From NCBI GenBank assembly GCA_944392105.1, contig CALXVM010000008.1, forward strand, positions 2,148 to 66,147: a stretch of DNA of 64,000 bases, in the 5' to 3' direction. Both the position numbers and the translations under genes were made by a program. Below, piece after piece: positions 3,597 to 64,000 of this stretch. The DNA comes from an uncultured Clostridia bacterium (GTDB taxonomy: Bacteria > Bacillota > Clostridia > TANB77 > CAG-508). Each line of letters starts with the position of its first letter. Position 1 is the stretch's first letter. The notes beneath the pieces were generated by a model that saw nothing but the letters and a program-made list of their open reading frames with translations, ran no database searches and was not told the DNA's origin.

Positions 3597-3820
3597 ATTT
3601 TATTTAGTAATTTTAGATTATTTTACCAAATTAGATTAATATTCCAAAATAGTTCAATCTTAAAAATTAATATAAAAAAAATAGTTTAATATAAAAGATA
3701 TCCAATAGCCTGGCAATTAATTAAAACTGCTATACTATTGGATATTTTTTATCATACAATTATTTTTCTTTTTTTGTAATTCTTTGTTTTATTTTTCGAT
3801 TTTATTTAATTTAAGAGTAG

Positions 3821-3960
3821 ATCGTATCTTAATTTCTTAAATCAGGAAATTAAGATCTGGTCCCAATTTCTCAAATTAGGAATTTCAGATCTGGTCCCAA
3901 TTTCTTCTGACCTGTCCCCAATTTTCCAAATCGGGAAGTTGGGACCTGTCCCTAATTTCC
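3821..3960 (-). repeat. Family-A palindromic repeat array (about 4 units of GAYCTGKTCCCNAATTTC with short self-complementary spacers)
   Basis: Units AGATCTGGTCCCAATTTC (3855, 3887), TGACCTGTCCCCAATTTT (3909) and GGACCTGTCCCTAATTTC (3941). Inverted repeat ATCTTAATTTC/GAAATTAAGAT at 3827-3856. The terminal unit supplies GGA AAT TAG, the end of ftsH. Confidence 0.85.
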
Positions 3961-5748
3961 AATTAGCTGTTGGAATTCTTCTGCAGATATAATTTCTTTT
4001 TCTATTAATGCTTGTGCTACTTTGTCTAGCTTATCCATGTTGTCTAATATAAGTTTTTGTGCTTTTACGTATGCATTATCTATCATTATTTTTACTTCTG
4101 CGCCAACTGCATCGCCGAATTTTTCTCCAAATAGTTGTAGCTCGTATGGGTCTTTTTCTGTGTCTATATAAATTGGTCCTAAGTCATCACTCATGCCATA
4201 TTTTACTATCATGTCTTTTGCTATTTGTGTGGCAACTTCTATGTCATTGCTTGCACCAGTTGATATATCGTTTAATGCAATTTTTTCTGCAGCACGTCCG
4301 CCTAATAAAGAGATAAGTTTTTCTTCCATTTCTGTTTTAGATATATAATACTTATCTTCGTTTGTTTTATACATTGTGTATCCGCCTGCTACACCTCTTG
4401 GAATTATAGAAACTTCCTTAATATCTTTTTGTGTTTCTAGTTGACTACTAACTATTGCATGTCCTGCTTCGTGATATGCAGTTAATTTTTTGTCTTTTTC
4501 TGAAACAACTCTACTATGTTTTTCTACTCCTATAGTTACTTTCTTTGTTGCATCTTCTATATCTTTATTAGTTATAGCGTCATGTTTATTTATTGTAGCA
4601 ATAATTGCAGCTTCATTTAAAATATTTGCAAGTTCTGCTCCAGAAAATCCAGCTGTATCTTCTGCAATATTTCTTAAGTCAACGTCGTCTGCCAATTTCT
4701 TATCTTTGGCATGTATTTTTAGTATTGCTTCTCTTCCATTTAAGTCTGGTAGTGCAATATTTATTTGTCTGTCAAATCTACCAGGTCTAAGTAAAGCTTT
4801 ATCTAGCATTTCTGGTCTATTTGTTGCTGCTAACACTATAATGGTTTCTTCTGTATCAAATCCATCCATCTCTACTAATAACTGATTTAATGTTTGATTA
4901 TTTTCAGACTCTGCTCCACTACCACTTGTTCTTCTAGAACCTACTGCATCTATTTCGTCAATAAATACTATACATGGAGCTATTTTTTTAGCTTTTTCGA
5001 ATAATTTTCTTACCCTAGAAGCTCCAAGTCCTGCGAACATTTCTATAAATTCTGAACCACTCATAGAAATAAAAGGTACATTTGCTTCTCCTGCAATTGC
5101 TTTAGCAATTAAGGTTTTACCTGTTCCAGGTTTTCCGCAAAGAAGTACTCCTCTTGGAATTTTAGCTCCCATTTCATAAAACTTATCTGGATTTTTTAAG
5201 AAATCTACAATTTCTATCATTTCTTGTTTTTCTTCGTCTAATCCTGCAACATCATCAAAAGTTATTTTTGATTTTGTAGTTTCTGCATCATATACCTTGC
5301 TCTTATCTCCCAACCCTTGCAACTTAAATAGCATAACAAATAGTATTACTAGAAGTATTGTTGGCAATAGTGTAAACAAATTACTAAATATAGTTACAAA
5401 TAAATTAGGCTTTTTTTGATTAAGCTCTATATTGTTTCCATCTTCTACTTTGCTCTGAATTAGCTCAACAAATGCTTGAGTATTTGGAACAATACATGAC
5501 CTTTCGTCTGTCTCGTCTTTTAATTTAACTTTAACAGTTGTGCTACCTGTTGTCATTTCTACTTTTTCTACATTACCATTGCCAATTTCTCTAATAAGCT
5601 CTGTATATGCAATTTCGGTGTTGTCATCTTTTTTATTAGTTGTTACAACATATATTGTTAATGCAACTGCGACAATTACAAGCACTATTGCAGCTATTAA
5701 GAAATACATATTCTTCTTTTTATTATTTTTCTTTTCTTCTTCCTTCAT
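3952..5748 (-). CDS. ftsH: ATP-dependent zinc metalloprotease FtsH
   Basis: Two N-terminal TM segments, AAA+ Walker A GKPGTGKT, Walker B IVFIDEID, and zinc site HEAGHA. Confidence 0.95.
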   Translation of the reverse strand: MKEEEKKNNKKKNMYFLIAAIVLVIVAVALTIYVVTTNKKDDNTEIAYTELIREIGNGNVEKVEMTTGSTTVKVKLKDETDERSCIVPNTQAFVELIQSKVEDGNNIELNQKKPNLFVTIFSNLFTLLPTILLVILFVMLFKLQGLGDKSKVYDAETTKSKITFDDVAGLDEEKQEMIEIVDFLKNPDKFYEMGAKIPRGVLLCGKPGTGKTLIAKAIAGEANVPFISMSGSEFIEMFAGLGASRVRKLFEKAKKIAPCIVFIDEIDAVGSRRTSGSGAESENNQTLNQLLVEMDGFDTEETIIVLAATNRPEMLDKALLRPGRFDRQINIALPDLNGREAILKIHAKDKKLADDVDLRNIAEDTAGFSGAELANILNEAAIIATINKHDAITNKDIEDATKKVTIGVEKHSRVVSEKDKKLTAYHEAGHAIVSSQLETQKDIKEVSIIPRGVAGGYTMYKTNEDKYYISKTEMEEKLISLLGGRAAEKIALNDISTGASNDIEVATQIAKDMIVKYGMSDDLGPIYIDTEKDPYELQLFGEKFGDAVGAEVKIMIDNAYVKAQKLILDNMDKLDKVAQALIEKEIISAEEFQQLIGN

Positions 5749-11642: not shown

Positions 11643-11695
11643 ATAAGAAAATCTCCTTATGATATTTTTATTTTATCATAAGGAGATTTTCTTAT
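11643..11695 (-). terminator. Perfect 22-bp stem hairpin (bidirectional terminator candidate)
   Basis: ATAAGAAAATCTCCTTATGATA (11643-11664) pairs perfectly with TATCATAAGGAGATTTTCTTAT (11674-11695). The loop is 9 nt and the flanks are T-rich. Confidence 0.7.
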
Positions 11696-11700
11696 ATTTA

Positions 11701-11847
11701 TATTTCACACCGCAAAAATAATCGAGCTTCTATTTTAGATTTTAAGTCATTTTGTCGTGCTTTCGAATGATTTTTTATTATTCTTACTGTTTTAGGCGGT
11801 ATTTATACCTATTCTGTGCGTTTTAAGGCCATATTTTGCGGTCGCAT
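11701..11847 (-). other. Conserved 3' UTR element downstream of variable-protein gene (copy 1 of 3)
   Basis: Alignable by eye with 25581-25721 and 53892-54033. Shared blocks on the coding strand are CAAAATATGNCCTYTAAAACGCACA, AATAGG..AAATACCNCCTAAA, AAATCATTCGAAAG and GACAAAA. It lies between the stop codon and the terminator hairpin. Confidence 0.55.
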
Positions 11848-13185
11848 CTAAAGTGCGACCAAGACCGGACGGAACGAAACATTGCTGCTGCTGCCACCGT
11901 TGTTGTCGAAAGCGAACACGCCAGCACGCGAGCCATCGTAGTAATAGCCTCCGCGGCGGAAGAAAGGACTGCTCGTGAAAGGAAAGTAAGAGCAATCACC
12001 GTACCACGATCCGTTGCTTGTGTTGCCGTTCGCGCTCGTCTCATACACTGCGTCTCCATACTTACTTGCATTTTGATTATAGTTATTTGTGTTATTATCC
12101 GTACTTGCTTTTGTATACACATTCTTCGTCTTTGCGTCTCCATTTACTAAGCTTGAGCCATAGCTTGTTAAATTACCATTTCCGTTATTTACGTATCCTG
12201 CTACATATTCCCAGGCTCCTCCACTCATATCATACACTCCATACACATTTCCTGTTGTACTTTGTGCTCCATTATTTACATATGTGTTTCCACTTCCTCC
12301 TCCTGTGTAATATGAGCTATTACTGTTTATTGTTACTTCTTCTGTTTGTTTTCCATATTTACTTTTACTTAGGTATGCTACTGCTCCCCATTCATCATTT
12401 TTCATCATATGACTATTTAATGTTTTATTATAATTTAAACAATTTGTATATGCCGTTCCTATATAAATATATCTCCAGCTTGCTACTCCTGGTTTTACCT
12501 GTAATGTCTTTGTTGTTACGTTATCTCCGCTACTGCTATTACTATTTCCTTGTACACTACTTGCTTCAAATTTTGCTACCCATAGCCCACTTACTGTTTG
12601 ACCATAATTAAATGCTGGATGGATATTCCAATTTCCTGCTCCACTTGCATTATTAAAGCTTGTTCTTCCTGTACTTGTTTCGTTCGTTAAACCTTTCATG
12701 AACTCTACTTCTATTGTTCCTGTGCTACTACTATGATATCCACTTGTTATACTATATGCATATCTTGGTATCCATACCCACATGCTTCCATCACTTGTTT
12801 TTGCATTTGCCCATTTCTTTGCTGAATAATCATACCAATCTGGGTCGCTTCCTGTTGTCTCTACCCAATCTCCTGCTCCGCCATTTGCTGTTTCGTCCCA
12901 TTTTATAGGTGTCATTCCTTCCCCTAAATCTGGCGTGTTCACTCCTTTTTCTTCATTATAACTTCCATCGCTTGGTAACGTTGGCTCCTCTGGCGTGCTT
13001 CCTCCTATTGTATTATTCATAATACTTGCTAAATCATTATATAATTGGTTTAACTCGTCTTGCTCTTGTTCTACTGCTTCCTTTGTTTTATTTGCTGCCT
13101 CTTGTGCCTTTTTTATTATTCCATTATCACTAAATATTGTACTTATTGTTACACTTGCTAATATTAATAATACTACAATCGTCAC
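11848..13185 (-). CDS. Pilin-like N-terminus / C-type-lectin-fold (FGE-sulfatase-like) surface protein with hypervariable C-terminus, paralog 1; 5' end apparently frameshifted
   Basis: Paralog of 25722-27179 and 54034-55446 (WVWIPRYAYSITSGYHSS, IHPAFNYGQTVSG, HMMKNDEWGAVAYLSKSKYGK, GVYDMSGGAWEYV, SFRPVLV). The GITLIALVVTIVVLLILA segment is in this frame but has no ATG. The expected leader (ATG 13300, RBS GGGAGG, MRVKATKK...) is in another frame, which implies a 1-nt shift near 13210-13225. Confidence 0.7.
   Translation of the reverse strand: MTIVVLLILASVTISTIFSDNGIIKKAQEAANKTKEAVEQEQDELNQLYNDLASIMNNTIGGSTPEEPTLPSDGSYNEEKGVNTPDLGEGMTPIKWDETANGGAGDWVETTGSDPDWYDYSAKKWANAKTSDGSMWVWIPRYAYSITSGYHSSSTGTIEVEFMKGLTNETSTGRTSFNNASGAGNWNIHPAFNYGQTVSGLWVAKFEASSVQGNSNSSSGDNVTTKTLQVKPGVASWRYIYIGTAYTNCLNYNKTLNSHMMKNDEWGAVAYLSKSKYGKQTEEVTINSNSSYYTGGGSGNTYVNNGAQSTTGNVYGVYDMSGGAWEYVAGYVNNGNGNLTSYGSSLVNGDAKTKNVYTKASTDNNTNNYNQNASKYGDAVYETSANGNTSNGSWYGDCSYFPFTSSPFFRRGGYYYDGSRAGVFAFDNNGGSSSNVSFRPVLVAL
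11851..12055 (-). other. G+C-rich hypervariable patch (DGR-type variable region candidate, VR1)
   Basis: Hand count gives 66/120 G+C at 11881-12000, against 17/60 at 12301-12360 in the same gene. Scaffold codons are identical to VR2 and VR4. Variable codons are NNC/NNT. The hairpin GGTCGCA-N7-TGCGACC (11840-11860) encloses the stop codon. Confidence 0.65.
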
Positions 13186-13663
13186 TACTAATGCTATTAG
13201 CGTTATCCCGCTTGTTTTCTCTTTGCTTCTTTACCTTTAGCAAATTTTTTATTTCTAGCTCATCAATCTTGTTTAATTTTTTTGTTGCTTTTACTCTCAT
13301 TTTATTTTCCTCCCATTTACTTCTTTTGTTATTATTGCCAACTTTTCTAGTATTAATCATCTTTATTACATATAATTTAATATCTTTTAATATTGCTGGC
13401 CATCTTTTATTAATGTTCTTAATAAAAAATATGGAATTATTTATTCTTTTTTCTTTTATCGTATAGAATAAATATATCATTTCACTTCTTGATAGTCAAT
13501 ATTAATTATTCCTATTTTTATTACATTTTCTTTACGTTTTTATTACAATTATCTTATGACAAAATCATAGTAAAAACTTTCAATTTACCTTTTAAAGCGT
13601 AAAAATAGGCAGGTTCAAAAGACCCTGCCTATAAATTAAGTTAACACCCCTTTTACGTTTATT

Positions 13664-20784: not shown

Positions 20785-20839
20785 GCTGACCTGTCCCCGA
20801 TTTCCCAAATCGGGAAATTGGGACCTGTCCCTAATTTCC
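20785..20839 (-). repeat. Family-A palindromic repeat, one full ~55-bp unit
   Basis: GCTGACCTGTCCCCGATTTCCCAAATCGGGAAATTGGGACCTGTCCCTAATTTCC. Its last 9 nt encode G-N-stop of the M23 gene. Confidence 0.85.
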
Positions 20840-22105
20840 AGGTGGGTTAACATATTTTAGTGGGTCTTGCGTGTAGCCGTTTATTCTTACTTCGAAGTGG
20901 CAGTGTGGACCTGTAGAATTTCCTGTTGATCCTACTTCCATTATTAAGTCGCCTTGTTTTACTTGTTTGCCTTTTTCTGTTAGTATTTTTTGTCCGTGAG
21001 CATACAATGTTGTAATTCCGTTTCCATGGTCTATCATAACGCAGTTTCCATAGCTTCCCAATTCTCCTGCATAAGATACTACGCCATCTAGTGCTGCGAC
21101 TATAGGTGCTCCATAGTCTGCTCCTCCTATGTCTAAACCTTGATGTAGTTTTACTACACCTTGTATTGGGTGCTCTCTTATTCCATAATTAGATGTTATT
21201 ACGGTTCCAGACACCGCTACAGGCCAAATTAATGCTCCTCCTGTGTATTGTATATCTATGCTTGGAGTTGTAGAAATTTGCATTATTAATGTTTCTATTC
21301 TTAATTGCTCATTTTTGTATGCTGTTATTTCGTCATTAAGCTTTTTCTCGTTTTCTTGTAGGCTGTTAACATATCCTTGTTGCAAGCTTCTTGTATTACT
21401 AAGTACAAGTGACATCTGTTCTGCTTTTGCCTTTATTACTTTTGTTTGAGCATTTTCGTTCTCTATTTTTTGTTTATATTGTTCTATCTCTTCTTTTTTC
21501 TGAGCAACTTCATTCATAAGGTTAATATCTACTTCTGTTATTTGTCTCATAAAATAAATAGATGACAAAAACTCTGGTAAACTTTTAGACCTTAATAATA
21601 CATCTAAATATGATACCTCTCCTGCTTTAGATATTGCTACAAGTCTTTTTCTTACTGTGTCGTCCTTTTGCTCATAGTCTTTTGTTGTCTCTTCTAATTC
21701 TATTGTCATTGATTTTATAGATTCTTCATAACTGTTTACTTTGTTATTTAGTTCGTTAATTTGATTTTCATAATCTCTTATAGAATCGTCCAATTTTTGA
21801 ATTTGAAGTAGAGTATTTGACATTTCGTTTTGTACATATTCAAGTTGTAAACTAGATTGATTTATTTTTTCTTCGACTTCTTCTTTTTGTTGGTTTAAAC
21901 TGTCTATAGTATTTGTAGCTTGATTTTGCTCTGTGTTTGAGCCTTCGTTATTCTGTGTAGTTGCATTTGTAGTATTTGAATTTGTGCTTGTCATAGAAGT
22001 ACCTGCATTTTCGCTTGCTATGTCTATACTACTTGCTATAACTGTAACAGAATAACTAATTATTAAAATTAAAGCAAGGAGAGTGCAAAGTATTTTGTTT
22101 TTCAA
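20831..22105 (-). CDS. Coiled-coil M23 family metallopeptidase (EnvC/PcsB-like architecture)
   Basis: Signal peptide, long coiled coil, and an M23 domain with HQGLDIG and GPHCHFEVR. It lies downstream of ftsEX. Confidence 0.85.
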   Translation of the reverse strand: MKNKILCTLLALILIISYSVTVIASSIDIASENAGTSMTSTNSNTTNATTQNNEGSNTEQNQATNTIDSLNQQKEEVEEKINQSSLQLEYVQNEMSNTLLQIQKLDDSIRDYENQINELNNKVNSYEESIKSMTIELEETTKDYEQKDDTVRKRLVAISKAGEVSYLDVLLRSKSLPEFLSSIYFMRQITEVDINLMNEVAQKKEEIEQYKQKIENENAQTKVIKAKAEQMSLVLSNTRSLQQGYVNSLQENEKKLNDEITAYKNEQLRIETLIMQISTTPSIDIQYTGGALIWPVAVSGTVITSNYGIREHPIQGVVKLHQGLDIGGADYGAPIVAALDGVVSYAGELGSYGNCVMIDHGNGITTLYAHGQKILTEKGKQVKQGDLIMEVGSTGNSTGPHCHFEVRINGYTQDPLKYVNPPGN

Positions 22106-25450: not shown

Positions 25451-25580
25451 ATCAATTTTTATATTAGGTAAACTTTTTATTCTTTTCCTCTGCCATCTCT
25501 ATTTTCCCCCAATCTATATCATCTATTATTATAGGTTACTATATAGTTTACCGTACATCTATATGAGATATTTTGGTATT

Positions 25581-25721
25581 GCACCCGTGAAATACCCGAC
25601 CTCGTATTTTGCGTTTTGAGGCATTTTGTCCGACTTTCGAATGATTTATCATAGGTTGTGCTATTTTAGGTGGTATTTACGCCTATTGTGTGCGTTTTAG
25701 AGGCATATTTTGTAGTCACAT
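25581..25721 (-). other. Conserved 3' UTR element (copy 2 of 3)
   Basis: Near-identical over most positions to 53892-54033 and more loosely to 11701-11847. Each copy has two CTCYAAAACGCA boxes, and candidate stems show compensatory changes (CCTC..GAGG, and CTT..AAG in copy 1). Confidence 0.55.
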
Positions 25722-27179
25722 CTAATTTGCGACCAAGACCGGACGGAACGAAGTGTTGCTGCTAGCACCGCCATCGTTGCCGTTGAAATAGAACACGCCA
25801 GCACTCGAGCCATCGTTGTAATAGCCTCCGCGGATGAAGAAAGGAGCGCTCGTGCCAGGAAAGCCAGAGTAATCGCCGTACCACGATCCGTTGCTTGAGT
25901 TACCGTTTGAGCTCGTCTCGTAAACCGCGTCTCCATACACTCCTGCATTTGCACTGTAATTACTACTGTTATTATCTGAACTTCCTTTTGCATACACGTT
26001 CTTCGTCTTTGAGTCACTACTATTTACTAAACTTGCTCCATAGTTTGTTAAGCTTGCATTTCCATTATTTACATATGCTGCTACATATTCCCATGCTCCT
26101 CCGCTCATATCATATACTCCATACACATTTCCCGTTGTACTTGCTTTTACTCCTTGTGTACTTGTATAATCTGTCGTTGTTCCTGTATTTTGAGATGCAC
26201 TTGCACTATTTCCTGCTGATCCTGTTATGAAACTGCTACTATTATTTATCCATACTTCTTCTGTTTCTTTTCCATATTTACTTTTACTTAAATATGCTAC
26301 TGCTCCCCACTCATCATTTTTCATCATATGGCTATTTAGTGTGCTATTATAACTTTTACATTTATTATATATATCATTTACACTTATACCTCTCCAGCTC
26401 TGTACTCCTGGTTGTACCTTTATTACTCCACTACTTCCTGCACTACTTGAGCTTGCATTACTTTGGCTTGCTTCAAATTTTGCTACCCATATTCCACTTA
26501 CTGTTTGCCCATAGTTAAATGCTGGATGGATATTCCAGTTTCCTTGTCCACTTGCATTATTAAAGCTTGTTCTTCCACTTGTTGTTTCGTTTCTTGTTCC
26601 TTTCATAAATTCTACTGCTATTGTTCCTGTACTGCTACTATGATATCCACTTGTTATACTATATGCAAACCTTGGTATCCATACCCACATACTTCCATCT
26701 GCTGTTTTTGCGTTTGCCCATTCCTTATTTTCATAATCATACCATTCTGGGTTGCTTCCGTCTGTTTCTACCCAATCTCCTGCTCCCTCATTTGCTGTTT
26801 CGTCCCATTTTATTGGCGTCATTCCTTCTCCTAAATTTGGTGTGTTTACTCCTTTGTCTTCACTAAAACTTCCATCACTTGGCAATTCTGGCTCTTCTGG
26901 TGTTGTTCCGCTTCCGCCTATTCCATTTAGCATATTTTCCATATAGTCTGCTATTTCATTCATTTGTGTTTGTTCATTTATTGTTGCTTCTTTTGTTTTG
27001 TTTGCCGCTTCTTGTGCCTTTGCTATTATTCCGTTTTCACTAAATACTAAGCTTATTGTTATTCCTGCTAATATCAATAATACTACAATTGTTACAACTA
27101 GTGCTATTAGTGTTATACCTTGTGTTTTTTTACAATATGTTTTGCTACTATCTTTTTGCAATAAAAATGTTTTCTCCAT
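25722..27179 (-). CDS. Pilin-like N-terminus / C-type-lectin-fold (FGE-sulfatase-like) surface protein with hypervariable C-terminus, paralog 2
   Basis: ATG 27179 with RBS GGGAGG is preferred over the track start 27242. Leader MEKTFLLQKDSSKTYCKKTQG, then ITLIALVVTIVVLLILAGITISLVF (class III signal-like). C-terminal GVYDMSGGAWEYV ... PFFIRGGYYNDGSSAGVFYF ... SFRPVLVAN. Confidence 0.8.
   Translation of the reverse strand: MEKTFLLQKDSSKTYCKKTQGITLIALVVTIVVLLILAGITISLVFSENGIIAKAQEAANKTKEATINEQTQMNEIADYMENMLNGIGGSGTTPEEPELPSDGSFSEDKGVNTPNLGEGMTPIKWDETANEGAGDWVETDGSNPEWYDYENKEWANAKTADGSMWVWIPRFAYSITSGYHSSSTGTIAVEFMKGTRNETTSGRTSFNNASGQGNWNIHPAFNYGQTVSGIWVAKFEASQSNASSSSAGSSGVIKVQPGVQSWRGISVNDIYNKCKSYNSTLNSHMMKNDEWGAVAYLSKSKYGKETEEVWINNSSSFITGSAGNSASASQNTGTTTDYTSTQGVKASTTGNVYGVYDMSGGAWEYVAAYVNNGNASLTNYGASLVNSSDSKTKNVYAKGSSDNNSSNYSANAGVYGDAVYETSSNGNSSNGSWYGDYSGFPGTSAPFFIRGGYYNDGSSAGVFYFNGNDGGASSNTSFRPVLVAN
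25725..25935 (-). other. G+C-rich hypervariable patch (DGR-type variable region candidate, VR2)
   Basis: See the finding at 25722-25935. Stop-spanning hairpin at 25714-25734 (7 pairs in the mRNA sense, including 2 G-U). Confidence 0.65.
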
Positions 27180-27289
27180 GTTATTCCTCCCACTTTTGTT
27201 TCTTTTGTTATTGTTTCCCATTTTTTTATTTTTAATCATCATTTTACTTATAGGAACAATCTTTTCTTTTTATTTCAATTTGCGATATT

Positions 27290-28650: not shown

Positions 28651-28669
28651 CTTACGTTACTCCTTTTTG

Positions 28670-28699
28670 TTGTCAATTTTCTCCGTCCCCATTGACAAC
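28670..28699 (-). repeat. Family-B palindromic repeat (TTGTCAAT - 13-nt loop TTTCTCCGTCCCC - ATTGACAA)
   Basis: Perfect 8-bp arms. It encodes the last 8 codons and stop (VVNGDGEN*) of the transketolase C-terminal subunit. Two related copies are at 55764-55826. Confidence 0.8.
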
Positions 28700-29614
28700 T
28701 AACTGGCATATCGCTTGTGCGTCTATTCTAAAGTATTTCATTAAATCTGCTGCTTTTCCAGATTTTCCAAAGCAGTCTGGTATTCCCAATCTTATAACTT
28801 TAGTTGGGTATTCTTCTGCTAATACTTCGCATACAGCAGTTCCAAGCCCTCCTATTATACTATGGTCCTCTACTGTAATTATTTTATCTGTTTCTTTAGC
28901 ACATTTTACTATTAATTCTCTATCTATTGGTTTTATTGTATGTATATCAACAACTCTTACGTCAAAACCTCTTTCTTTTAGCAGTTCTTGTGCTTTTAGA
29001 GCTTCTGAAACTGTAACTCCTGTTGCAAATATTGTGGCATCTGTACCATTTCCTATTTGCACACCTTTTCCTATTTCGAATTTTTGATTTTCCTCATATA
29101 TAACAGGTGTTGCAATTCTTGCTAATCTTAAATAAACTGGTCCATCTATTTTAGATATTTCTTCAACTGCCCATTTTGTTTGTACATCATCAGAAGTACT
29201 AATTACTGTCATATTAGGTAGTCCTCTCATTAAGTTTATATCCTCTAACATTTGATGAGTTGCTCCATCTTCTCCCACTGTTACTCCTGCATGTGTTCCG
29301 CAAATTTTAACATTTAATTTTGGATATGCTACACTGCATCTTATTTGGTCATATACTCTACCTGTTGCAAATGCTGCAAACGTACTAACAAAAGGAACTT
29401 TTCCAAATGTTGAAAGCCCATCAGCTATTCCAATCATGTTCTGTTCTGCTATTCCCACATCTATAAATCTATCTGGGAACTTTTTTGCAAATAACGATGT
29501 TTTAGTTGATTTTGCTAAATCTGCATCTATTACAACTACATTTTTATTTTCTTCGCCAAGTTTTTCTAATGCTTCACCAAAACTTTGACGAGTTGCTATT
29601 TTCTCTTCTCTCAT
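28673..29614 (-). CDS. Transketolase, C-terminal (pyrimidine-binding) subunit
   Basis: Typical split-transketolase B subunit (GIAEQNMIGIADGL, EDGATHQ). Confidence 0.9.
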   Translation of the reverse strand: MREEKIATRQSFGEALEKLGEENKNVVVIDADLAKSTKTSLFAKKFPDRFIDVGIAEQNMIGIADGLSTFGKVPFVSTFAAFATGRVYDQIRCSVAYPKLNVKICGTHAGVTVGEDGATHQMLEDINLMRGLPNMTVISTSDDVQTKWAVEEISKIDGPVYLRLARIATPVIYEENQKFEIGKGVQIGNGTDATIFATGVTVSEALKAQELLKERGFDVRVVDIHTIKPIDRELIVKCAKETDKIITVEDHSIIGGLGTAVCEVLAEEYPTKVIRLGIPDCFGKSGKAADLMKYFRIDAQAICQLVVNGDGEN

Positions 29615-37060: not shown

Positions 37061-37115
37061 GCTGACCTGTCCCCAATTTCCCGATTTGGGAAGTTGGGAC
37101 CTGTCCCTAATTTCC
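37061..37115 (-). repeat. Family-A palindromic repeat, one unit, central loop inverted relative to other copies
   Basis: GCTGACCTGTCCCCAATTTCCCGATTTGGGAAGTTGGGACCTGTCCCTAATTTCC. The loop is GATTT here and AAATC at 3929, 20807 and 63156. The last 9 nt encode G-N-stop of the ATPase. Confidence 0.85.
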
Positions 37116-38945
37116 AACCAGCACTCTTAACGCATTTAATATTGCTAAAACAGATACACCAACATCTGCAAAAACAGCTTGCCACATGTTAGATAAACCA
37201 ATTGCACTTAATATAAGTACTAGTATTTTTACTACAATTGCAAATATAATATTTTGTTTTACAATTTTTAATGTTTTTTTAGAAATTTTTATTGCATCTA
37301 CTACTTTTGAAGGTTCGTCTGTCATTAGTACTACATCTGCCGCTTCAATAGCAGCATCACTGCCAAGTCCTCCCATTGCAATTCCAATATCTGAAATTGC
37401 TAATACAGGAGCATCGTTAATTCCATCTCCAACAAAAGCAAGTTTTCCTTTCTCCGATTTACTTTTCATTAATTCTTCTACTTTTTCTACTTTGTCATTA
37501 GGTAATAACTCTGTATAAACTTCGTCTAAGCCTAATTCTTTTGCTACACTTTCTCCTACAGCTTTCTTATCTCCTGTTAACATTACTATTTTCTTTACAT
37601 TGTTTTTCTTTAACTTTTCAATTGCTTTTTTAGCATCTGCTTTTATTTTATCAGATATTATAATAGTTCCTTTAAATTGATTATTTATAGCTACATATAA
37701 TATTGTTCCTATTTCATTACATTTTATGTATTCAATATTTTTTTCTTGCATTAGTTTTTCGTTTCCTACAAAAACTTCTTTTCCGTCAACTACTGCATTT
37801 ACTCCTAAACCTGATAACTCATGCGTTTCTGATATTTTTTTATTGTCTATATCTTTTCCATATGCTTTTTTTAAAGAATTTGCTATTGGATGATTTGAAA
37901 AGCTTTCGGCATATGCAGCGTATTTAATTAAGTCTTCTTTTGTTATATCTACAGAGTTTACTTTTTTTACTTCAAATACACCTTCTGTTAATGTTCCTGT
38001 TTTGTCAAATACTACTACTTCTGTTTTAGATAAAGCTTCCAAATAATTGCTTCCTTTAACTAATACTCCTAATTTAGATGCCCCACCAATGCCTCCGAAA
38101 AATCCTAATGGTATTGATATAACAAGTGCACAAGGACATGATACTACTAAAAATGTCAATGCTCTATATAGCCATTGTATAAATTCCGTTTCTTTAAATA
38201 TTATTGGTGGAATTATTGCAAGTAATACTGCTATCACAACAACTATTGGTGTATAGTACTTTGCAAATTTACTAATAAAGTTTTCTGACTTAGACTTTTT
38301 ACTACTTGCATTTTCTACTAAATCTAATATTTTGCTAACAGTAGACTCTCCGAAACTCTTTGTTACTTTAATCTCTATTAAACCATTTTGATTTATACTT
38401 CCACTTAATACTTCGTCTCCAATGTTTACTTCTCTTGGAACAGATTCACCCGTTAATGCAGAAGTGTCAAGCATAGAATTTCCGTCTACTATGGTTCCAT
38501 CTAGTGGTACTTTCTCTCCAGGTTTTACTATTATTATATCTCCTATACTTATTTTATCTGGACTTACTTTCTCTATACTGCCATTTTTCTTTATATTTGC
38601 AAAATCTGGTCTAATATCCATAAGGCTAGCTATTGATTTTCTAGATTTATCTACAGCATAGCTTTGGAACATTTCTCCCACTTGGTAAAATAGCATAACT
38701 GCAACTGCTTCTGGATATTCTCCAATTGCGAAAGCACCTATTGTAGCAATTGTCATAAGAAAATTCTCGTCAAAAACTTCTCCTTTAAATATATTCTTTA
38801 TTGCTTCTATAAGTACATCTAATCCCACTATTAAATAACTAATAATATATATTCCAATATTAATCCAAGCATTTTCAAAAGGAATAATTAAAGATATTAA
38901 AAATAATATTAATGCAATTACAACTTTTATTACTTCCTTTTTCAT
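37107..38945 (-). CDS. Heavy-metal translocating P1B-type ATPase (Cd/Zn/Co class likely)
   Basis: CPC motif (VSCPCALVISIP), DKTGTLT, GDGINDAP. No N-terminal HMA domain. It is paired with an ArsR-family gene. Confidence 0.9.
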   Translation of the reverse strand: MKKEVIKVVIALILFLISLIIPFENAWINIGIYIISYLIVGLDVLIEAIKNIFKGEVFDENFLMTIATIGAFAIGEYPEAVAVMLFYQVGEMFQSYAVDKSRKSIASLMDIRPDFANIKKNGSIEKVSPDKISIGDIIIVKPGEKVPLDGTIVDGNSMLDTSALTGESVPREVNIGDEVLSGSINQNGLIEIKVTKSFGESTVSKILDLVENASSKKSKSENFISKFAKYYTPIVVVIAVLLAIIPPIIFKETEFIQWLYRALTFLVVSCPCALVISIPLGFFGGIGGASKLGVLVKGSNYLEALSKTEVVVFDKTGTLTEGVFEVKKVNSVDITKEDLIKYAAYAESFSNHPIANSLKKAYGKDIDNKKISETHELSGLGVNAVVDGKEVFVGNEKLMQEKNIEYIKCNEIGTILYVAINNQFKGTIIISDKIKADAKKAIEKLKKNNVKKIVMLTGDKKAVGESVAKELGLDEVYTELLPNDKVEKVEELMKSKSEKGKLAFVGDGINDAPVLAISDIGIAMGGLGSDAAIEAADVVLMTDEPSKVVDAIKISKKTLKIVKQNIIFAIVVKILVLILSAIGLSNMWQAVFADVGVSVLAILNALRVLVGN

Positions 38946-46087: not shown

Positions 46088-46164
46088 TTTATTATTCCTT
46101 TTTATATGAGATAGCCTTCGTAAGCTTAACAAAAATAAAATACCTCCTTTGATTTTCACTTAAA
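46088..46164 (-). repeat. 77-bp direct repeat of the mob-upstream (oriT/promoter-like) block, copy without a downstream gene
   Basis: TTTATTATTCCTTTTTATATGAGATAGCCTTCGTAAGCTTAACAAAAATAAAATACCTCCTTTGATTTTCACT matches 49280-49356 with ~3 mismatches. Confidence 0.8.
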
Positions 46165-46220
46165 TAAAACTTTTTTTAGTTTCTAACATACTAGAACGTC
46201 AAAAGACGTTTCGTATGGTC

Positions 46221-49279: not shown

Positions 49280-49356
49280 TTTATTATTCCTTTTTATATA
49301 AGATAGCCTTCGTAAGCTTAACAAAAATAAAATACCTCCTTTGATTTTTACTAAAC
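49280..49356 (-). repeat. 77-bp mob-upstream block (oriT/promoter-like), copy adjacent to mob
   Basis: Direct repeat of 46088-46164. It sits immediately 5' of the relaxase ATG. Confidence 0.8.
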
Positions 49357-49739
49357 TGCTTTATTTTTTATTTAACTCTTTTTAATTTTTACTAATTTAT
49401 TTTAATTTTTTATATTAAAACAACTAACTCAACAGTTAGAGCTTAAAGCGTTGAAATAGGTTTATGTAGTCTGTTCAGCCCAACCAACGGAAAATAGCGA
49501 CTTTCATGAAATTGAAAGTTGTTATTTTTTTATAATGTCAAACAAATTCGTTAGTTTCTACAATTTTATGATTAATAGTTATAGTATTGTTTATAAAATC
49601 AAATGCAGACCATTTTAAACTTAAAAATTCACTTCTTCTTCCCCCATAAAAACTAAATAGAAAATAATATTTATAATTTGTAGTAAAATCCAAAAAACAA
49701 TGTTATAATAATAATAGCTTTTTTTGAAAGGGTGATAAA

Positions 49740-53840: not shown

Positions 53841-53881
53841 AAATAACAGTACCAAAATATAAAATATTTGTACTGTTATTT
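53841..53881 (-). terminator. 12-bp stem hairpin ending the variable-gene 4 transcript
   Basis: AAATAACAGTAC (53841-53852) pairs with GTACTGTTATTT (53870-53881). Confidence 0.55.
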
Positions 53882-53891
53882 TATTTATATT

Positions 53892-54033
53892 CTACACCGT
53901 CAAAATACTCGACCTCTTATTTTGCGTTTTGAGACGTTTTGTCCGACTTTCGAATGATTTACATAGGTTGTGCCGATTTAGGCGGTATTTGTGCCTATTA
54001 TGTGCGTTTTAGAGGCATATTTTGTGGTCACAT
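53892..54033 (-). other. Conserved 3' UTR element (copy 3 of 3)
   Basis: Aligns with 25581-25721 along its whole length. Confidence 0.55.
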
Positions 54034-55446
54034 CTAAATTGTGGCTAAGACCGGACGGAACGAGACGCTGCTGTTGCTAACGCCATAGTAACACTCGAAA
54101 TAGAACACGCCAGCACTAGAACCACCGCCGAAATAGGCTCCGCGATAGAAGAAAGGAAGGCTCGTGTGAGGAAAGCTAGAGGAATCGCTGTACCACGATG
54201 TTGCTCCGCTACCGCTTGTGCTCGTTTCGTACACCGCGTCTCCATACACTCCTGCGTTTGCGTTATAATTATTTGTTTGATTTTCTGAGCTTGCTTTACT
54301 ATACACGTTCTTCGTCTTTGGATCTCCATTTACTAAGCTTTTTCCATAGCTTGTTAAATTGCCATTTCCGTTATCTACATACGCTGCTACATATTCCCAT
54401 GCTCCTCCGCTCATATCGTATACTCCCCAGACGTTTCCGGTTGTACTTTGTGCTCCATTATTTACATATGTGTTTCCACTTCCTCCTCCGGTATAATATG
54501 AACTATTGCTATTTATTGTTACTTCATCGTTTTTTCCATATTTACTTCTACTTAAATATGCTACTGCTCCCCACTCGTCATTTTTCATCATATGACTATT
54601 TAATGTCTTATTATAATTTAGACAGTTTGTATATATGCTATCTACTGTTATACTTCTCCAACTCTGTACTCCTGGCTGTACCATTATTTTTCCATTACTA
54701 TTACTTGCTTCAAATTTTGCTACCCATATTCCACTTACTGGTTGTCCATAGTTAAATGCTGGGTGTATTACATATCCATTTGGAAATTGTGTATAATTTG
54801 TTGTTGTACTATCATTATATTCTACTATTGTTTGTCCTGTTGCTGTTTCGTTACTCGTTCCTTTCATAAATTCTATGCTTATTTCTGTTGCTGTACTTGT
54901 ATGGTATCCTGTACTTGGAATATTATATGCATATCTTGGTATCCACACCCACATACTTCCATCTGTAGTTTTTGCATTTGCCCATTTCTTTGCTGAATAA
55001 TCATACCAATCTGAGTCACTTCCGTCCGTTTCTACCCAATCTCCTGCTCCGCCATTTGCTGTTTCGTCCCATTTTATTGCTGTCATTCCTTCTCCTAAGT
55101 TTGGCGTATTTACTCCTTTTGACTCGCTATAACTCCCATCGCTTGGTAATTCTGGCTCAGGTTCCGGTGTTGTACTTCCTCCACCTATTCCATTTAACAT
55201 ATTTTCCATTGCAGCTGTTACATCATTCATTTGTGTTTGTTCATTTATTACTGCTTCTTTTGTTTTATCTGCTGCCTCTCTTGCTTTTGCTATTATTCCA
55301 TTTTCACTAAACACTAAGCTTATTGTTATTCCTGCTAGTATTAAAAGTACTACAATCGTTACAACTAGTGCTATTAGTGTTATACCTTGTGTTTTTTTAC
55401 AATATGCTTTTCTATTATCTTTTTGTAATAAAAACGTTTTCTCCAT
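54034..55446 (-). CDS. Pilin-like N-terminus / C-type-lectin-fold (FGE-sulfatase-like) surface protein with hypervariable C-terminus, paralog 4
   Basis: ATG 55446 with RBS GGGAGG. Leader MEKTFLLQKDNRKAYCKKTQG, then ITLIALVVTIVVLLILAGITISLVF. C-terminal GVYDMSGGAWEYV ... PFFYRGAYFGGGSSAGVFYF ... SFRPVLATI. Confidence 0.8.
   Translation of the reverse strand: MEKTFLLQKDNRKAYCKKTQGITLIALVVTIVVLLILAGITISLVFSENGIIAKAREAADKTKEAVINEQTQMNDVTAAMENMLNGIGGGSTTPEPEPELPSDGSYSESKGVNTPNLGEGMTAIKWDETANGGAGDWVETDGSDSDWYDYSAKKWANAKTTDGSMWVWIPRYAYNIPSTGYHTSTATEISIEFMKGTSNETATGQTIVEYNDSTTTNYTQFPNGYVIHPAFNYGQPVSGIWVAKFEASNSNGKIMVQPGVQSWRSITVDSIYTNCLNYNKTLNSHMMKNDEWGAVAYLSRSKYGKNDEVTINSNSSYYTGGGSGNTYVNNGAQSTTGNVWGVYDMSGGAWEYVAAYVDNGNGNLTSYGKSLVNGDPKTKNVYSKASSENQTNNYNANAGVYGDAVYETSTSGSGATSWYSDSSSFPHTSLPFFYRGAYFGGGSSAGVFYFECYYGVSNSSVSFRPVLATI
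54037..54245 (-). other. G+C-rich hypervariable patch (DGR-type variable region candidate, VR4)
   Basis: Same scaffold codons as VR1 and VR2, with variable NNY codons. A weaker stop-spanning hairpin at 54026-46. Confidence 0.6.
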
Positions 55447-55608
55447 GTTATTCCTCCCACTTTTGTTTCTTTTGTTATTGTTTCCCATTTTTTTATTTTT
55501 AATCATTATTTTACTTTTTGTTCTGCATTACATTTATATATTAACATTTCAAGTTAGTATAATGATTATTAACTTTAATATAGAAACAATTTTATCTCAT
55601 TTTGCAAT

Positions 55609-55634: not shown

Positions 55635-55763
55635 ATATTTCTTTTTCTTTACATTTTTATTACAATTTTGTTTCACTTTTGATTACATTTTAAGTTATGT
55701 TTTGGCTTGCATTTTAATTGCTTCTTTGACTGCTCTTTCGATAGATTTTATCTAGTAATTAAG

Positions 55764-55826
55764 TTATCAACGTTCTCCGTCCCTATTGACAAGTTGTCAA
55801 AAATCTCCGTCCCCATTGACAAGTTT
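55764..55826 (-). repeat. Family-B palindromic repeats, two tandem units
   Basis: TTATCAACGTTCTCCGTCCCTATTGACAAG followed by TTGTCAAAAATCTCCGTCCCCATTGACAAG. The mtaB reading frame runs through both (…CQWGRRFLTTCQ*). Confidence 0.8.
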
Positions 55827-57129
55827 CGCTCTTGGCAAGCTCTCCAACTAACTCTAGCCCTTCTGCTCTTGCAATTTTTACATTGGCAATTTCATTTTCT
55901 AGCTTGCTTTCTTTTGCTTTTACTTTAACTACTCTATAATTTGTAGTATGTCCTTTTAAGTATTCTCCGTCTTGCTCTTCAAAAAGAACGCTAAGGGTTT
56001 TACCTACACATGCATTATTAAATTCTTCCTCATATTTATTTGAAAGTTCTAATAGTTTATTGCTTCTTTCTTCTTTTATATTTCCGTCTATTTGATTTTC
56101 CATTACTGCTGCTTTAGTTCCTTCTCTTATTGAGTATTTAAACACATGTATTTTATATAATTTTATTCTTTTTAGTAATTCATAAGTTTGGTTAAATTCT
56201 TCGTCTGTTTCTCCGGGGAAGCCCACTATTATATCTGCTGTTAATGCTGCATTTGGAAAGTATTTTCTTATTCTTGCTGCCGCTTCTTCTATTTCTTCTG
56301 CTGTGTATTTTCTATTCATCCTTTTTAAAGTTTCTGTACAACCACTTTGTAAAGATAAGTGAAAGTGGTCACATACTTTTTCTAACTTGCTTAGTCTTTC
56401 TACAAAGTCATCCGTTATTATTGTTGGTTCTAATGAGCCTAACCTAATTCTTTTTATTTTAGGGATTTTGTTTATATCTTCTAGTAAGTCTATAAGCCTG
56501 TAATCTTTTAATTTTTCTTTATTTTCTTCTTCCGACTTATTGCAGTCTATTTGCTCTATATCCCTATATGCAAAATCTGTACCGTAAGCAGTTAAGTTTA
56601 TTCCTGTTAACACAACCTCTTTTATTCCATTTTCTGAAATTTTCTCTATTTCTTTAATTATATGTTCAGGAAGCCTACTTCTAACTCTTCCTCTTGCATA
56701 TGGAATAATACAATATGTACAAAATTGGTTACAGCCATCTTCTATTTTTATTACTGCTCTGTTTCTCTCTGTATGCGTAATCAGCCCATATTCCTCATAA
56801 TTATCCTTTGGTGTCATATCAGAAACAGAAACTATTTTCTCTCTTTCTTTTAAATATTCTTGTGCATACTTAACTATATCTTTTTTCTCCTTAGTCCCAA
56901 GAATTAAATCTATATCTTTTATTTCTTCAAGTTTTTCCCTAGCCACTTGAACATAACAACCAACAGCTACAACTATTGCATCCTTGTTTTGTTGCTTAAC
57001 TCTCCTTATCATCTGTCTAGACTTCTTATCTGCAATACTTGTAACTGTACATGTATTTATTACATATATATCTGCTTTATCCTCAAAATTTACTACGTCA
57101 TATCCTGCTTCTATAAATTTTTGCATCAT
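55783..57129 (-). CDS. mtaB: tRNA threonylcarbamoyladenosine methylthiotransferase MtaB-like radical SAM enzyme; N-terminus apparently frameshifted
   Basis: Radical SAM CNQFCTYC, MTTase N-domain VINTCTVT, and a TRAM-like C-terminus. The expected start (ATG 57196, RBS AAGGAG, MEKGKVAFCTL) is in another frame. Confidence 0.85.
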   Translation of the reverse strand: MMQKFIEAGYDVVNFEDKADIYVINTCTVTSIADKKSRQMIRRVKQQNKDAIVVAVGCYVQVAREKLEEIKDIDLILGTKEKKDIVKYAQEYLKEREKIVSVSDMTPKDNYEEYGLITHTERNRAVIKIEDGCNQFCTYCIIPYARGRVRSRLPEHIIKEIEKISENGIKEVVLTGINLTAYGTDFAYRDIEQIDCNKSEEENKEKLKDYRLIDLLEDINKIPKIKRIRLGSLEPTIITDDFVERLSKLEKVCDHFHLSLQSGCTETLKRMNRKYTAEEIEEAAARIRKYFPNAALTADIIVGFPGETDEEFNQTYELLKRIKLYKIHVFKYSIREGTKAAVMENQIDGNIKEERSNKLLELSNKYEEEFNNACVGKTLSVLFEEQDGEYLKGHTTNYRVVKVKAKESKLENEIANVKIARAEGLELVGELAKSETCQWGRRFLTTCQ

Positions 57130-59912: not shown

Positions 59913-59993
59913 GGAAATTGAGGACAGGTCAAAGAAATTAGGACCAGATCCAAATTTCTTATTTTAAGAAATTTAGATCTGGTCCCAATTTCC
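59913..59993. repeat. Family-A repeat cluster with units in both orientations
   Basis: GGAAATTGAGGACAGGTC and GAAATTAGGACCAGATC are inverted units. Then AAATTTCTTATTTTAAGAAATTT and AGATCTGGTCCCAATTTCC (a forward unit). It ends 2 nt before the deoD stop. Confidence 0.8.
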
Positions 59994-59994
59994 A

Positions 59995-60714
59995 CTAAAT
60001 ACTTTCCAATGCTAATTTAATCATGTTGTTTAGGCTCTTTTCCCTTTCTTCTGCTGTACTACTTTGTTTTTTTGCCAAAGAATCTACAACAGTTAATAAA
60101 CAAGATGCTTTTTTATTAAGATATTTTGCAATATAGAATAAAGCAAAAGCTTCCATTTCTGCTCCAATTATATTTAGGTCCTTTGGCAATCTATTTAATA
60201 ATGCATTTAAGTCATCTAAATATCCATCGAAACAATCTGAGCATAACGTATTTCCTTTTATATAAGGAATGTTTAACTTTTTTGCCACTTCTTCTATACT
60301 TGCATTTAGCTCTTCATCTGCTTGCATTAAATGGCAATCATTAGAATTCCATTCATATGCAAAATTTCCTTCTGTATACGTTTTATCTACTAAAATTGTA
60401 TCTAATAAGTCTATGTCTGGCGTGTATACTCCACATGAGCCTATCCTTATAATATTTTCCACATCATAGAATTTGTAAAGCTCATAACAGTAAATTCCCA
60501 TACTAGGCATTCCCATTCCAGAAGAGAATACTGTAACTTTTTTATCGCCATATTTTCCTGTATATGCAAGCATGTTTCTAACAGTATTTACTAGCTTTAC
60601 ATCTGTCAAAAAATTCTCAGCTATATATTTAGCACGTAATGGATCTCCTGGCATTAATACGTTTTTCTCAATATCATTCTTATTTGCGTTACAGTGAATA
60701 GTCATAAAACTCAT
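59995..60714 (-). CDS. deoD: Purine nucleoside phosphorylase, DeoD type
   Basis: PNP/UDP family: LMPGDPLRAKYIAE, SSGMGMPSMGIY, GAEMEAFAL. Confidence 0.88.
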   Translation of the reverse strand: MSFMTIHCNANKNDIEKNVLMPGDPLRAKYIAENFLTDVKLVNTVRNMLAYTGKYGDKKVTVFSSGMGMPSMGIYCYELYKFYDVENIIRIGSCGVYTPDIDLLDTILVDKTYTEGNFAYEWNSNDCHLMQADEELNASIEEVAKKLNIPYIKGNTLCSDCFDGYLDDLNALLNRLPKDLNIIGAEMEAFALFYIAKYLNKKASCLLTVVDSLAKKQSSTAEEREKSLNNMIKLALESI

Positions 60715-60804: not shown

Positions 60805-60825
60805 GCTGACCTGTCCCCAATTTCC
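60805..60825 (-). repeat. Family-A repeat, solitary half unit
   Basis: GCTGACCTGTCCCCAATTTCC, just downstream of greA. Confidence 0.7.
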
Positions 60826-60830
60826 AAATT

Positions 60831-61310
60831 TTATTTTGTTATTGCTAAAATTTTATATTTCATTACTCCTGCTGGTGCTTGAACTTCTACAGTTTGATTT
60901 TTCTTAGCTCCTAATAAAGCTTTTCCTATTGGTGATTCGTTTGAGATTTTATTTTCTGCTAGGTTAACTTCTGTTGAGCCAACTATTGTATATGAAACTT
61001 CTTCGTCAAATTCTATATCTAAAACTTTAACAGTGTTACCTACTTGTACTGTTTTTGTGTCTATTTCTGATTCGTCAATAATCTTAGCATATCTTAATTT
61101 ATTCTCTAATTCAGCTATTTTAGTTTCATTAGCTGCTTGAGCATTTTTAGCTTCATCATATTCTGAATTTTCAGATAAATCTCCAAATCCTAAAGCCACT
61201 TTTATTCTTTCAGATATCTCTGTTCTTTTTTCTGTTTTTAAAACTTCTAATTCTTGTTCAAGTTTATCGTATCCCTCTTGAGTTAATAGGATTTCTTTTT
61301 CTTCTCCCAT
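60831..61310 (-). CDS. greA: Transcription elongation factor GreA
   Basis: N-terminal coiled coil with ...[13 protein letters not shown]..., and a C-terminal FKBP-like domain. Confidence 0.95.
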
Positions 61311-63043: not shown

Positions 63044-63188
63044 AAGATCTGCCTCAAATTTCTTCTTTTAAGAAATTTAAATCTGGTCCCAATTTCTTCT
63101 TTTTAGAAATTTAGATCTGGTCCCATTTTCTTTGCTGACCTGTCCCCAATTTCCCAAATCGGGAAGTTGGGACCTGTCCCTAATTTCC
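63044..63188 (-). repeat. Family-A palindromic repeat array (5 units)
   Basis: AAGATCTGCCTCAAATTTC, AAATCTGGTCCCAATTTC, AGATCTGGTCCCATTTTC, TGACCTGTCCCCAATTTC, GGACCTGTCCCTAATTTCC. Interleaved arms are AAATTTCTT/AAGAAATTT and CCCAATTTCCC/GGGAAGTTGGG. The terminal unit encodes G-N-stop of the GH18 gene. Confidence 0.88.
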
Positions 63189-64000
63189 AAAAAGCTTTTC
63201 TTTTACTATGTCCCATACTTCTGGGCTTTCTCTGTCTTTTTCCCAATATGCTGCTCCTGCTAATTTATATTCGTTTATTAAGTCTAGCTTAGCAGAAATT
63301 GATGTAGTGTCTTCTACCCACATCTTATATACGGCACCATTTTGTGTATATTCTACATAGTATTGTTTTAAGTTGTCATCCCATCTCTTTTCTACATTTG
63401 ATGGAAGTACTTTGTCTACATCTTTTAAGTCTACTGTATCACTGCTAATCTTTCCATTTTCTTCTTTCCATAGTCTTGTATAAAATGGTACTGCTAATAT
63501 AAGTTTGTCAGGGTCTACTCCTTCTTGTCCTAAAAATTTAGTAACGTTTACTTCTACCCAGTCACATCCAGCTGTAGTTCCTTCTTTATTAGAGTTTGCT
63601 CCGTATTGGTCATATGCCATAAAAATAATATAGTCTGCTACTTTACTTATAGTATTTCTGTCAAAGCACATTGACCATGTTTCTGAGCCGTCTGGTGCTG
63701 TTACATCTACAGATAAAACTTTGCCCATTTCATTTAGTCTTGGCTCTAGCTCTATTAAGAATCTATTAAACATTGCCTTATCTTCCATGTACATGTTTTC
63801 AAAGTCTATGTTTATTCCGTCTAAATTATATTTTACAACTAAGTCCACAATATTAGCAATTAATTTATTTCTTAATTTGTAATCGTTCATAATTTCAGAA
63901 GTTGTTTCCATCATAGATTCATTTGAAATCATTGCCCATACTTCTATTCCATTGTTATGTGCCCAATTGATATAATTTAGTCCAGCTGTTCCTACATTTT
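63180..64000 (-). CDS. Glycoside hydrolase family 18 domain protein, N-terminus beyond window edge
   Basis: Catalytic DGINIDFE motif. The reading frame stays open upstream of the track Met to position 64000 (…VGTAGLNYINWAHNNGIEVWAMISNES…). Confidence 0.8.
   Translation of the reverse strand, partial: NVGTAGLNYINWAHNNGIEVWAMISNESMMETTSEIMNDYKLRNKLIANIVDLVVKYNLDGINIDFENMYMEDKAMFNRFLIELEPRLNEMGKVLSVDVTAPDGSETWSMCFDRNTISKVADYIIFMAYDQYGANSNKEGTTAGCDWVEVNVTKFLGQEGVDPDKLILAVPFYTRLWKEENGKISSDTVDLKDVDKVLPSNVEKRWDDNLKQYYVEYTQNGAVYKMWVEDTTSISAKLDLINEYKLAGAAYWEKDRESPEVWDIVKEKLFGN

Follow-up and report, generated by a model that had tools for sequence, protein, structure and literature searches.

The short palindromic repeats found behind genes of this uncultured Clostridia bacterium are a REP-type family with a dedicated, single-copy HUH/Y1 tyrosine transposase, of the RAYT/TIRYT kind, that would maintain them. 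The whole reading, that REP-type hairpins are maintained in trans by a vertically inherited transposase and that the Gly-Asn-stop (GN-stop) ends of genes arose through small deletions, is highly probable. The genome is a 1.50-Mb assembly (31 contigs, 28% G+C), and the window, that is the whole stretch of DNA that was analysed, covers 64,000 nucleotides of it (C8:2148-66147).

The unit GAYCTGKYCCYAATTTC has 174 matches in the genome at ≤ 2 mismatches versus 2 in the reversed genome, and with a slightly wider pattern 182 units are found in the whole genome, grouped into 81 clusters. The initial annotation had recognised units at six loci of the window, all of which hold; the consensus printed there was slightly off, matching only 2 sites even at ≤ 2 mismatches, and was therefore replaced by GAYCTGKYCCYAATTTC. 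Units are of type A (GAAATTT-AGATCTGGTCCC-AATTTC) or type B (GGAAGTT-GGGACCTGTCCCT-AATTTCC). On the mRNA-sense strand the full unit reads GGAAATT-(A/G)GGGACAGGTCC-CAACTTCC, with a 7-bp stem and a conserved GGGAC loop. The tag that precedes GGGAC is TTAG or TTGG, and a conserved 5' GTAG tetranucleotide is absent from the units. The commonest layout, with 39 copies in identical arrangement, is a 55-nt head-to-tail doublet, T-GACCTGTCCCCAATTTCCC-AAATC-GGGAAGTTGG-GACCTGTCCCTAATTTCCAA, compared with nine clusters of simple inverted pairs (the REPIN layout). Fold energies are -10 kcal/mol (z -3) for the doublet and -23.3 kcal/mol (z -11) for the type A inverted pair, which resembles a 59-nt MITE. 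Since the arm GGAAGTT can pair with either adjoining AATTTCC, the alternative hairpins proposed from the window are real, and the fold energies bear them out.

The six loci of the window and the genes that they adjoin are:

3821..3962, plus strand: REP cluster, with type A units at 3821-3906 and a type B doublet at 3907-3962
3952..5748, minus strand: ftsH, ending ..QQLIGN-TAG
20785..20841, plus strand: type B doublet over the M23 peptidase stop, with two units at 20788-20838
20831..22105, minus strand: M23 peptidase gene, ending ..NPPGN-TAG
37061..37117, plus strand: type B doublet over the P-type ATPase stop, with two units at 37064-37114
37107..38945, minus strand: P-type ATPase gene, ending ..RVLVGN-TAG
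59913..59994, no strand assigned: type B unit in minus orientation and a type A inverted pair (REPIN-like), three units at 59914-59992
59995-60714, minus strand: PNP_UDP_1 phosphorylase gene, whose TAG directly adjoins the unit
60805..60826, plus strand: solo type B unit, at 60808-60824
60831-61310, minus strand: greA, whose TAA is a few nt from the solo type B unit
63044..63132, plus strand: three type A units (GAAATTTAGATCTGGTCCCAATTTC-like), the first degenerate, distal to the GH18 doublet
63135..63190, plus strand: type B doublet of the layout given above; read in the gene sense (minus strand), GH18 takes its last two codons from the 5' stem arm of this doublet and its stop from the TAG
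63180..63932, minus strand: 3' part of the GH18 gene (562 aa in the full contig), ending ..KEKLFGN, with GGA AAT TAG at 63188-63180

The ftsH locus holds four units (3854-3959), and its cluster is flanked by the ftsH stop and by a separate downstream hairpin at 3669-3774. The GH18 locus has in sum four units at 63080-63187 and a degenerate one from 63044. It had been noticed that FtsH, the M23 peptidase, the P-type ATPase and the GH18 protein all end in GGA AAT TAG inside the terminal unit; this is confirmed, and Pfam agrees with the gene identities. The element was also said to sit tightly against gene 3' ends everywhere, and indeed the remaining two loci abut the phosphorylase and greA stops.

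Other repeated sequences are present in the window. Three paralogous genes of about 450 to 500 aa (11848-13185, 25722-27242 and 54034-55506, minus strand) lie in segments 11694-13364, 25568-27243 and 53880-55510, which share 60 to 89% DNA identity and have similar upstream regions. Pfam searches with two of the three gave no match at E 1e-5. A 94-nt non-coding stretch is present in two copies, 88% identical and 3.2 kb apart (46088-46181 and 49280-49373).

Genome-wide, the repeats are concentrated on stop codons. Genes were called by a simple longest-ORF rule, and the offset was defined as the number of nucleotides from the stop codon to the unit end, negative where the stop lies inside the unit. 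Of 74 testable clusters, 57 were ≤ 8 nt from a convergent stop codon, compared with 11.6 expected when clusters were placed uniformly within their own intergenic space (0 of 100,000 simulations reached 57). Offsets from -8 to +8 relative to a convergent stop were found for 61 of 101 outward unit ends: 25 were at -8, which gives GN-stop, 14 at 0 and 8 at +3, and stops were met in the further registers -1, +1 and +2. The gene-facing end is always ..AATTTCCAA, with the gene-sense strand reading stop and then (TT)GGAAATT(A/G)GGGAC, and units sit at the start of 3' untranslated regions. It is clear that both the enrichment at 3' ends and the orientation bias for which a genome-wide count had been suggested do exist, the orientation being fixed.

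About 35 genes obtain their last residues or stop codon from a repeat. In 25 genes the frame ends with GGA AAT TAG within the element, and four more enter units in the other two frames, adding 6 to 32 residues (..EIGDRS, ..EIGTRS, ..GKLGPGPNFLI and a 32-aa tail). TAG accounts for 20 of the 27 stops that touch units, TAA for 16 of 21 among the orthologues in G018, the closest relative (FtsH identity 95%). No change in protein length was seen in 27 of 31 such genes. Units distant from genes have no TAG in front of them. At C16:7013-7933 (minus strand) an extra A in the A-run of the unit (GGAAAATTAG) shifts the frame, and the whole doublet is read through with a gain of about 32 residues.

An alternative genetic code in which ribosomes pass over TAG was rejected as an explanation, as orthologues stop at the same place; read-through would also put repeat-encoded tails on 25 unrelated proteins.

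A Pfam Y1_Tnp search of the genome revealed two genes, both on contig C23 outside the window. The gene associated with the units described above is:

C23:19954-20751: REP transposase gene, 265 aa, Y1_Tnp 53 bits

It is flanked by units in inverted orientation, since the left flank (C23:19745-19843) includes a minus-orientation unit and the right flank (20790-20835) a plus unit. The associated Y1 transposase that the initial annotation had proposed to look for is thus present and of REP-associated type. Among NCBIfam models, the REP-associated tyrosine transposase scores best (72 bits versus 19 for IS200), with both Y1 proteins, at 72 and 78 bits, falling just below the model cut-off of 80 bits. 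The sole PDB sequence match of the 265-aa protein is E. coli TnpA-REP (4ER8), which is also the best fold match of its AlphaFold2 model (pLDDT 89; E 9e-8, TM 0.76); IS608/ISDra2 transposases rank behind it (E ~1e-4). Among 38 homologues no variation was found at the HUH histidines H59 and H61 or at Y118, nor at Q247, R250 and G253. Residues 153-264 are modelled as an all-helical extension (pLDDT 73-93). A Pfam HTH match was absent for this protein, and the second Y1 protein gave only a weak one to HTH_11 (E 0.004).

The transposase is inherited in place, and the repeats change with it. All relatives compared are MAGs. An orthologue of the 265-aa protein (E < 1e-40) was found in 25 of 51 genomes of the genus, this one included, with one copy per genome in most species. 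It adjoins radA in the species inspected, and in at least six its other neighbour is the ..GWSHAMFIL gene. The transposase flanks carry a species-specific repeat variant, with a common GGGAC core and variable stems: the flanks in G046 carry the same family as the present genome, those in G013 carry GGTAATT-GGGGACGTTTCCA-AATTACC and those in G009 carry GTCGC-ATTGGGGACGTTTCTTGAC-GCGAC. Inverted flanking units are also found around the gene in G046, G013, G009 and G012, and variant units at least downstream of it in G016, G061 and G057. The core motif is abundant (≥ 15 copies) in 9 of 25 genomes with the transposase versus 2 of 26 without. In the exceptions, G058 (38 copies) and G060 (18 copies), where no Y1 transposase was detected, the gene may be missing through MAG incompleteness or the enzyme may be divergent.

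In G018 a Y1 search gave no match. The site of the transposase is empty, with 64 nt of degenerate repeat preceding the radA start, and although no intact units were found in this genome, decayed relics lie behind several orthologous genes. On comparison of the genomes, repeats demonstrably decay after the transposase has been lost, and the leftover ends and pieces in G018 are read as scars of lost repeats. Published work describes how REPINs decay following loss of their RAYT (bioRxiv 10.1101/2021.07.10.451892), and G018 agrees. Five G018 loci (L043, L060, L036, L098 and L104) have GN-, GD- or GE-stop ends with degenerate unit pieces; one example, GGAAATTAGG-TTTTTA-CCCTAATTTCC, is common to two convergent genes. 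The REP/MITE-like element of the initial annotation is accordingly supported as REP-type by a transposase that is flanked by units and syntenic, by a repeat variant for each species and by decay in G018.

Of 24 genes compared in G046, seven share both the GN-stop and the repeat; in two the repeat lies in a different register, and it is missing from about 14, so repeat occupancy turns over between close relatives. It differs among the present genome (G000), G046, G018 and L138, a metagenome contig with 98% FtsH identity. Exact empty sites in G018 intergenic DNA were unreadable because downstream regions are too diverged, despite 95% protein identity.

The GN-stop is new to the genes that have it. 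Orthologous gene ends were fetched with chimeric queries of 80-aa C-terminal fragments, many per search. Readable FtsH ends in the genus are ..LIK or ..IIK in 13 of 14 cases and ..LIQ in the other, compared with ..LIGN here. Orthologues of the M23 peptidase end in ..PPQN (G018), ..PPQ (G046) and ..SAP (G013). The comparison with orthologues lacking the element, also suggested at the outset, therefore displays native, non-GN C-termini (G013, and ftsH with ..K-stop in 13 of 14). Not one of 24 recovered G013 orthologues of GN-stop genes ends in GN, and two G013 orthologues end in ..VIGDVS, which comes from G013's own repeat. In G018, stops are mostly within about two codons of those in the present genome, and several orthologues end in GN, SN, QN, GE or GD, with or without relics. 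The initial annotation had reasoned that repeat-free relatives should not share the GN-stop; this is the case for the outgroup G013, and not for G018, where some orthologues do end in GN, with relics. As relics are present in G018 and GN is missing from the outgroup, GN is repeat-derived, and judged from these orthologous ends the GN-stop is clearly the derived state.

Two loci reveal how such ends may form. In L138, ftsH reads ..LIK TAG TTGGAAATTGGGGACAGGTC (also written LIK TAG TTGGAAATT..), and the ftsH junction of the present genome equals this state minus 8 nt. At gene C1:106404-107846, G046 has ..NK TAG TTAGAAATTAGGGAC, and the junction in the present genome equals that state minus 11 nt. 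The element would first sit 0 to 3 nt behind an intact stop, after which deletions of 5, 8 or 11 nt would remove the native stop and 0 to 2 codons, fusing the frame to the element. The 5' stem arm GGA AAT would become the last two codons, and the TAG at the stem/loop junction the stop. Fusions in the other two frames, in which reading continues far into the element, would then be purged by selection. From the +3 arrangement, deletions of 5, 8 or 11 nt bring the TAG into frame with a change in protein length of +2, +1 or 0; these changes match the range mostly seen, which favours short deletions after insertion. Many GN-stop ends thus seem to have arisen by small deletions after insertion, with two clear locus comparisons pointing to this origin. 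As for the units themselves, they are short, G+C-rich hairpins and would be immobile on their own; the transposase would maintain them, and probably multiply them, in trans, presumably acting on the hairpins as single-stranded DNA.

Post-insertion deletion accounts for at least part of the stop-codon pattern. On its own it gives no account of why elements start out 0 to 3 nt behind stops, nor of the TAG excess at touching stops (20 of 27, mostly TAA in G018), nor of the ftsH stop codon, which holds three different repeat variants in three lineages. At metagenome loci L139-L150, which are ftsH 3' ends from G018-like strains, the stop is polymorphic (TAG/TAA) among repeat-free strains, possibly because a TAG that was once linked to a repeat is now decaying.

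These same observations on TAG and on ftsH would be expected if the transposase integrated the single-stranded element directly at or inside stop codons, recognising TA(A/G) or a GAAATTAG-like sequence, perhaps because DNA is exposed where translation ends, with GN-stop and TAG delivered on insertion. Such direct targeted insertion is possible, though rather unlikely. It is consistent with the protein length left unaltered in 27 of 31 genes and with the lack of a target-site duplication (at 2 to 8 nt and 42 boundary choices, none was clearly above control). Furthermore, Y1 transposases of the IS608 type choose a short target equal to the flank of their own left end and insert on its 3' side. 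However, element ends meet the stop in several registers, unlike the products of a fixed cleavage point, and units distant from genes lack a preceding TAG. Intergenic DNA contains far more TAA and TAG triplets than gene ends do, and recognition of the sequence by itself could not bring 57 of 74 clusters to stops. The two loci with an intermediate state and a short deletion speak for deletion after insertion.

A bolder form of the idea is that the Y1 transposase actively puts hairpins on stop codons, recognising TA(G/A) on DNA that is single-stranded where ribosome-coupled transcription ends. The three ftsH variants, the TAG excess at touching stops and the unchanged protein lengths suggest active placement, although we consider it improbable. 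If true, mobile DNA would find the ends of reading frames and rewrite stops (TAA to TAG) and C-termini in about 35 genes, or nearly 3% of the proteome, and this would be the first target rule for REP/RAYT systems.

It is very unlikely that the hairpins are 3'-end RNA elements selected by the host (mRNA stabilisers, terminators or translation-termination brakes) and that the transposase is incidental. The fixed orientation relative to the gene and the position at the start of the 3' UTR would suit such a role. In addition, Liang, Rudd and Deutscher are said to have reported in 2015 that REPs ≤ 15 nt from a stop codon lower expression in E. coli via ribosome stalling. REP-containing mRNAs are known substrates of RNase R and PNPase (PMC12320835), which would also be in keeping with a host function. 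By a crude scan, however, a hairpin with a T-run end is present in only 7 of 60 stop-adjacent clusters, and a separate terminator-like hairpin lies beyond 18 of the 60, the one behind ftsH among them; the specific case of an intrinsic (Rho-independent) terminator was rejected, T-runs being mostly absent. In most doublets the stem has C-A on the mRNA strand and G-T on the antisense strand. Occupancy varies widely among close relatives, and the sister species G018 lost every unit with none replaced.

That the units are a MITE from a DDE-type insertion sequence, or DNA-uptake or protein-binding sites unrelated to the Y1 gene, is extremely unlikely, for although they are short, dispersed and partly inverted and the type A inverted pairs are MITE-like, no target-site duplication was found at any tested boundary, and the units flank the Y1 gene, change with it from species to species and vanish where it has been lost. 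Integron attC sites and DNA-uptake sequences were rejected, since these repeats are linked to the Y1 gene and scattered downstream of housekeeping genes.

A second REP family is present in the genome, and two of its loci lie in the window:

28669..28699, minus strand: second-family unit GTTGTCAATGGGGACGGAGAAAATTGACAAC; gene 28673-29614 (minus) reads through and ends ..VVNGDGEN-TGA in the 3' arm
55763..55822, minus strand: two tandem family-2 units; the frame of gene 55783-57129 (minus) runs through the first unit as far as its stop, the TAG of AATAGGGAC in the second

The second Y1 gene (C23:2164-2841), 38% identical to the first, has inverted copies of GTTGTCAnTGGGGACGGAGATTTTTGACAAC on both sides, and about 45 to 50 copies of this family-2 sequence occur in the genome. 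Seven called ORFs end inside family-2 units, including the two window genes and two short unchecked ORFs (81 and 106 aa).

Maintenance of REP-type hairpins in trans, the reading preferred here, places the system beside several that have been described. As in REP/REPIN-RAYT systems (E. coli TnpA-REP with BIMEs, and the REPINs of Pseudomonas and Neisseria), a single-copy Y1 HUH transposase is flanked by its own palindromes, the repeats are extragenic and near gene 3' ends, and each transposase lineage has a species-specific repeat, with vertical inheritance and decay upon loss. Repeat termini give TAG stops there too: REPs lie < 20 bp from the 3' ends of upstream genes, and GTAG REP termini often supply the TAG stop of flanking ORFs (Di Nocera et al. 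2013, PMC3733652). The present system differs in its host, a small-genome gut Clostridium with 28% G+C. GTAG is lacking; instead T(A/G)GGGAC is conserved in the loop or at the stem/loop junction and stems vary by species. Head-to-tail doublets with competing hairpins dominate here rather than inverted pairs, such dimers being rare in described families, and about 110 aa of helical sequence extend the transposase at its C-terminus.

This extension, for which Pfam gives no significant HTH assignment, may liken the protein to the TIRYTs of TIRtrons, Y1 proteins that are longer than classical RAYTs and have a helical (HTH-like) C-terminal part. TIRYT genes are RAYT-like, and the repeats on their flanks have GGGGWSAS in common and make up families of moderate abundance (Di Nocera et al. 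2013, PMC3733652). Dispersed copies in dimers and clusters, moderate in abundance, are likewise found here, and the flanking inverted repeats have the same motif: the type B core GGGGACAG fits GGGG[AT][CG]A[CG] exactly (consensus from PMC6006769), and the family 2 core GGGGACGG has one mismatch to it, the motif being near-palindromic so that the reversed genome is no usable control. TIRYTs have been equated with subclass 2.1 of TnpA-Y1, which has a C-terminal HTH-like domain, and no REP-like hairpins were found beside subclass 2.1 genes (Quentin et al. 2018, PMC6006769); in contrast, the flanking repeats here are clear hairpins, with about 180 units. Group 1 RAYTs are found in Clostridia, and abundant repeats mainly in Groups 2 and 3 (Bertels et al. 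2017). Since REP-supplied TAG stops and the TIRYT/GGGGWSAS association have been published before, the present system belongs to known REP behaviour in a new host group.

CGTC-tagged REPs (PMC3733652) also show similarities, as the plus-strand doublet can be written as C-TGTC-stem-5-nt loop-stem-short tail, TGTC is among the listed CGTC variants, and CGTCCCC occurs in relatives and in family 2. However, the stem is 11 bp here rather than 8 to 9 and begins with C-G rather than A-T pairs, and the CGTC-tagged REPs were reported without a dedicated transposase, whereas the present units flank one. As with Rickettsia palindromic elements and intragenic REPs, the repeat is translated within host proteins, but here it contributes only 2 C-terminal residues (6 to 32 in a few genes) and not in-frame internal insertions.

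REP-transposase systems have mostly been studied in Proteobacteria. The genus offers a compact natural experiment on such a system, with a syntenic transposase, repeat variants that change with it and a sister species that shows loss and decay. The repeats leave lasting marks in proteins, and GN-type ends outlive the repeat as scars. In annotation, it would be a mistake to treat repeat-derived C-termini and the excess of TAG stops as conserved features of the proteins. How REPs choose their sites could become clearer from the tight fit to stop codons.
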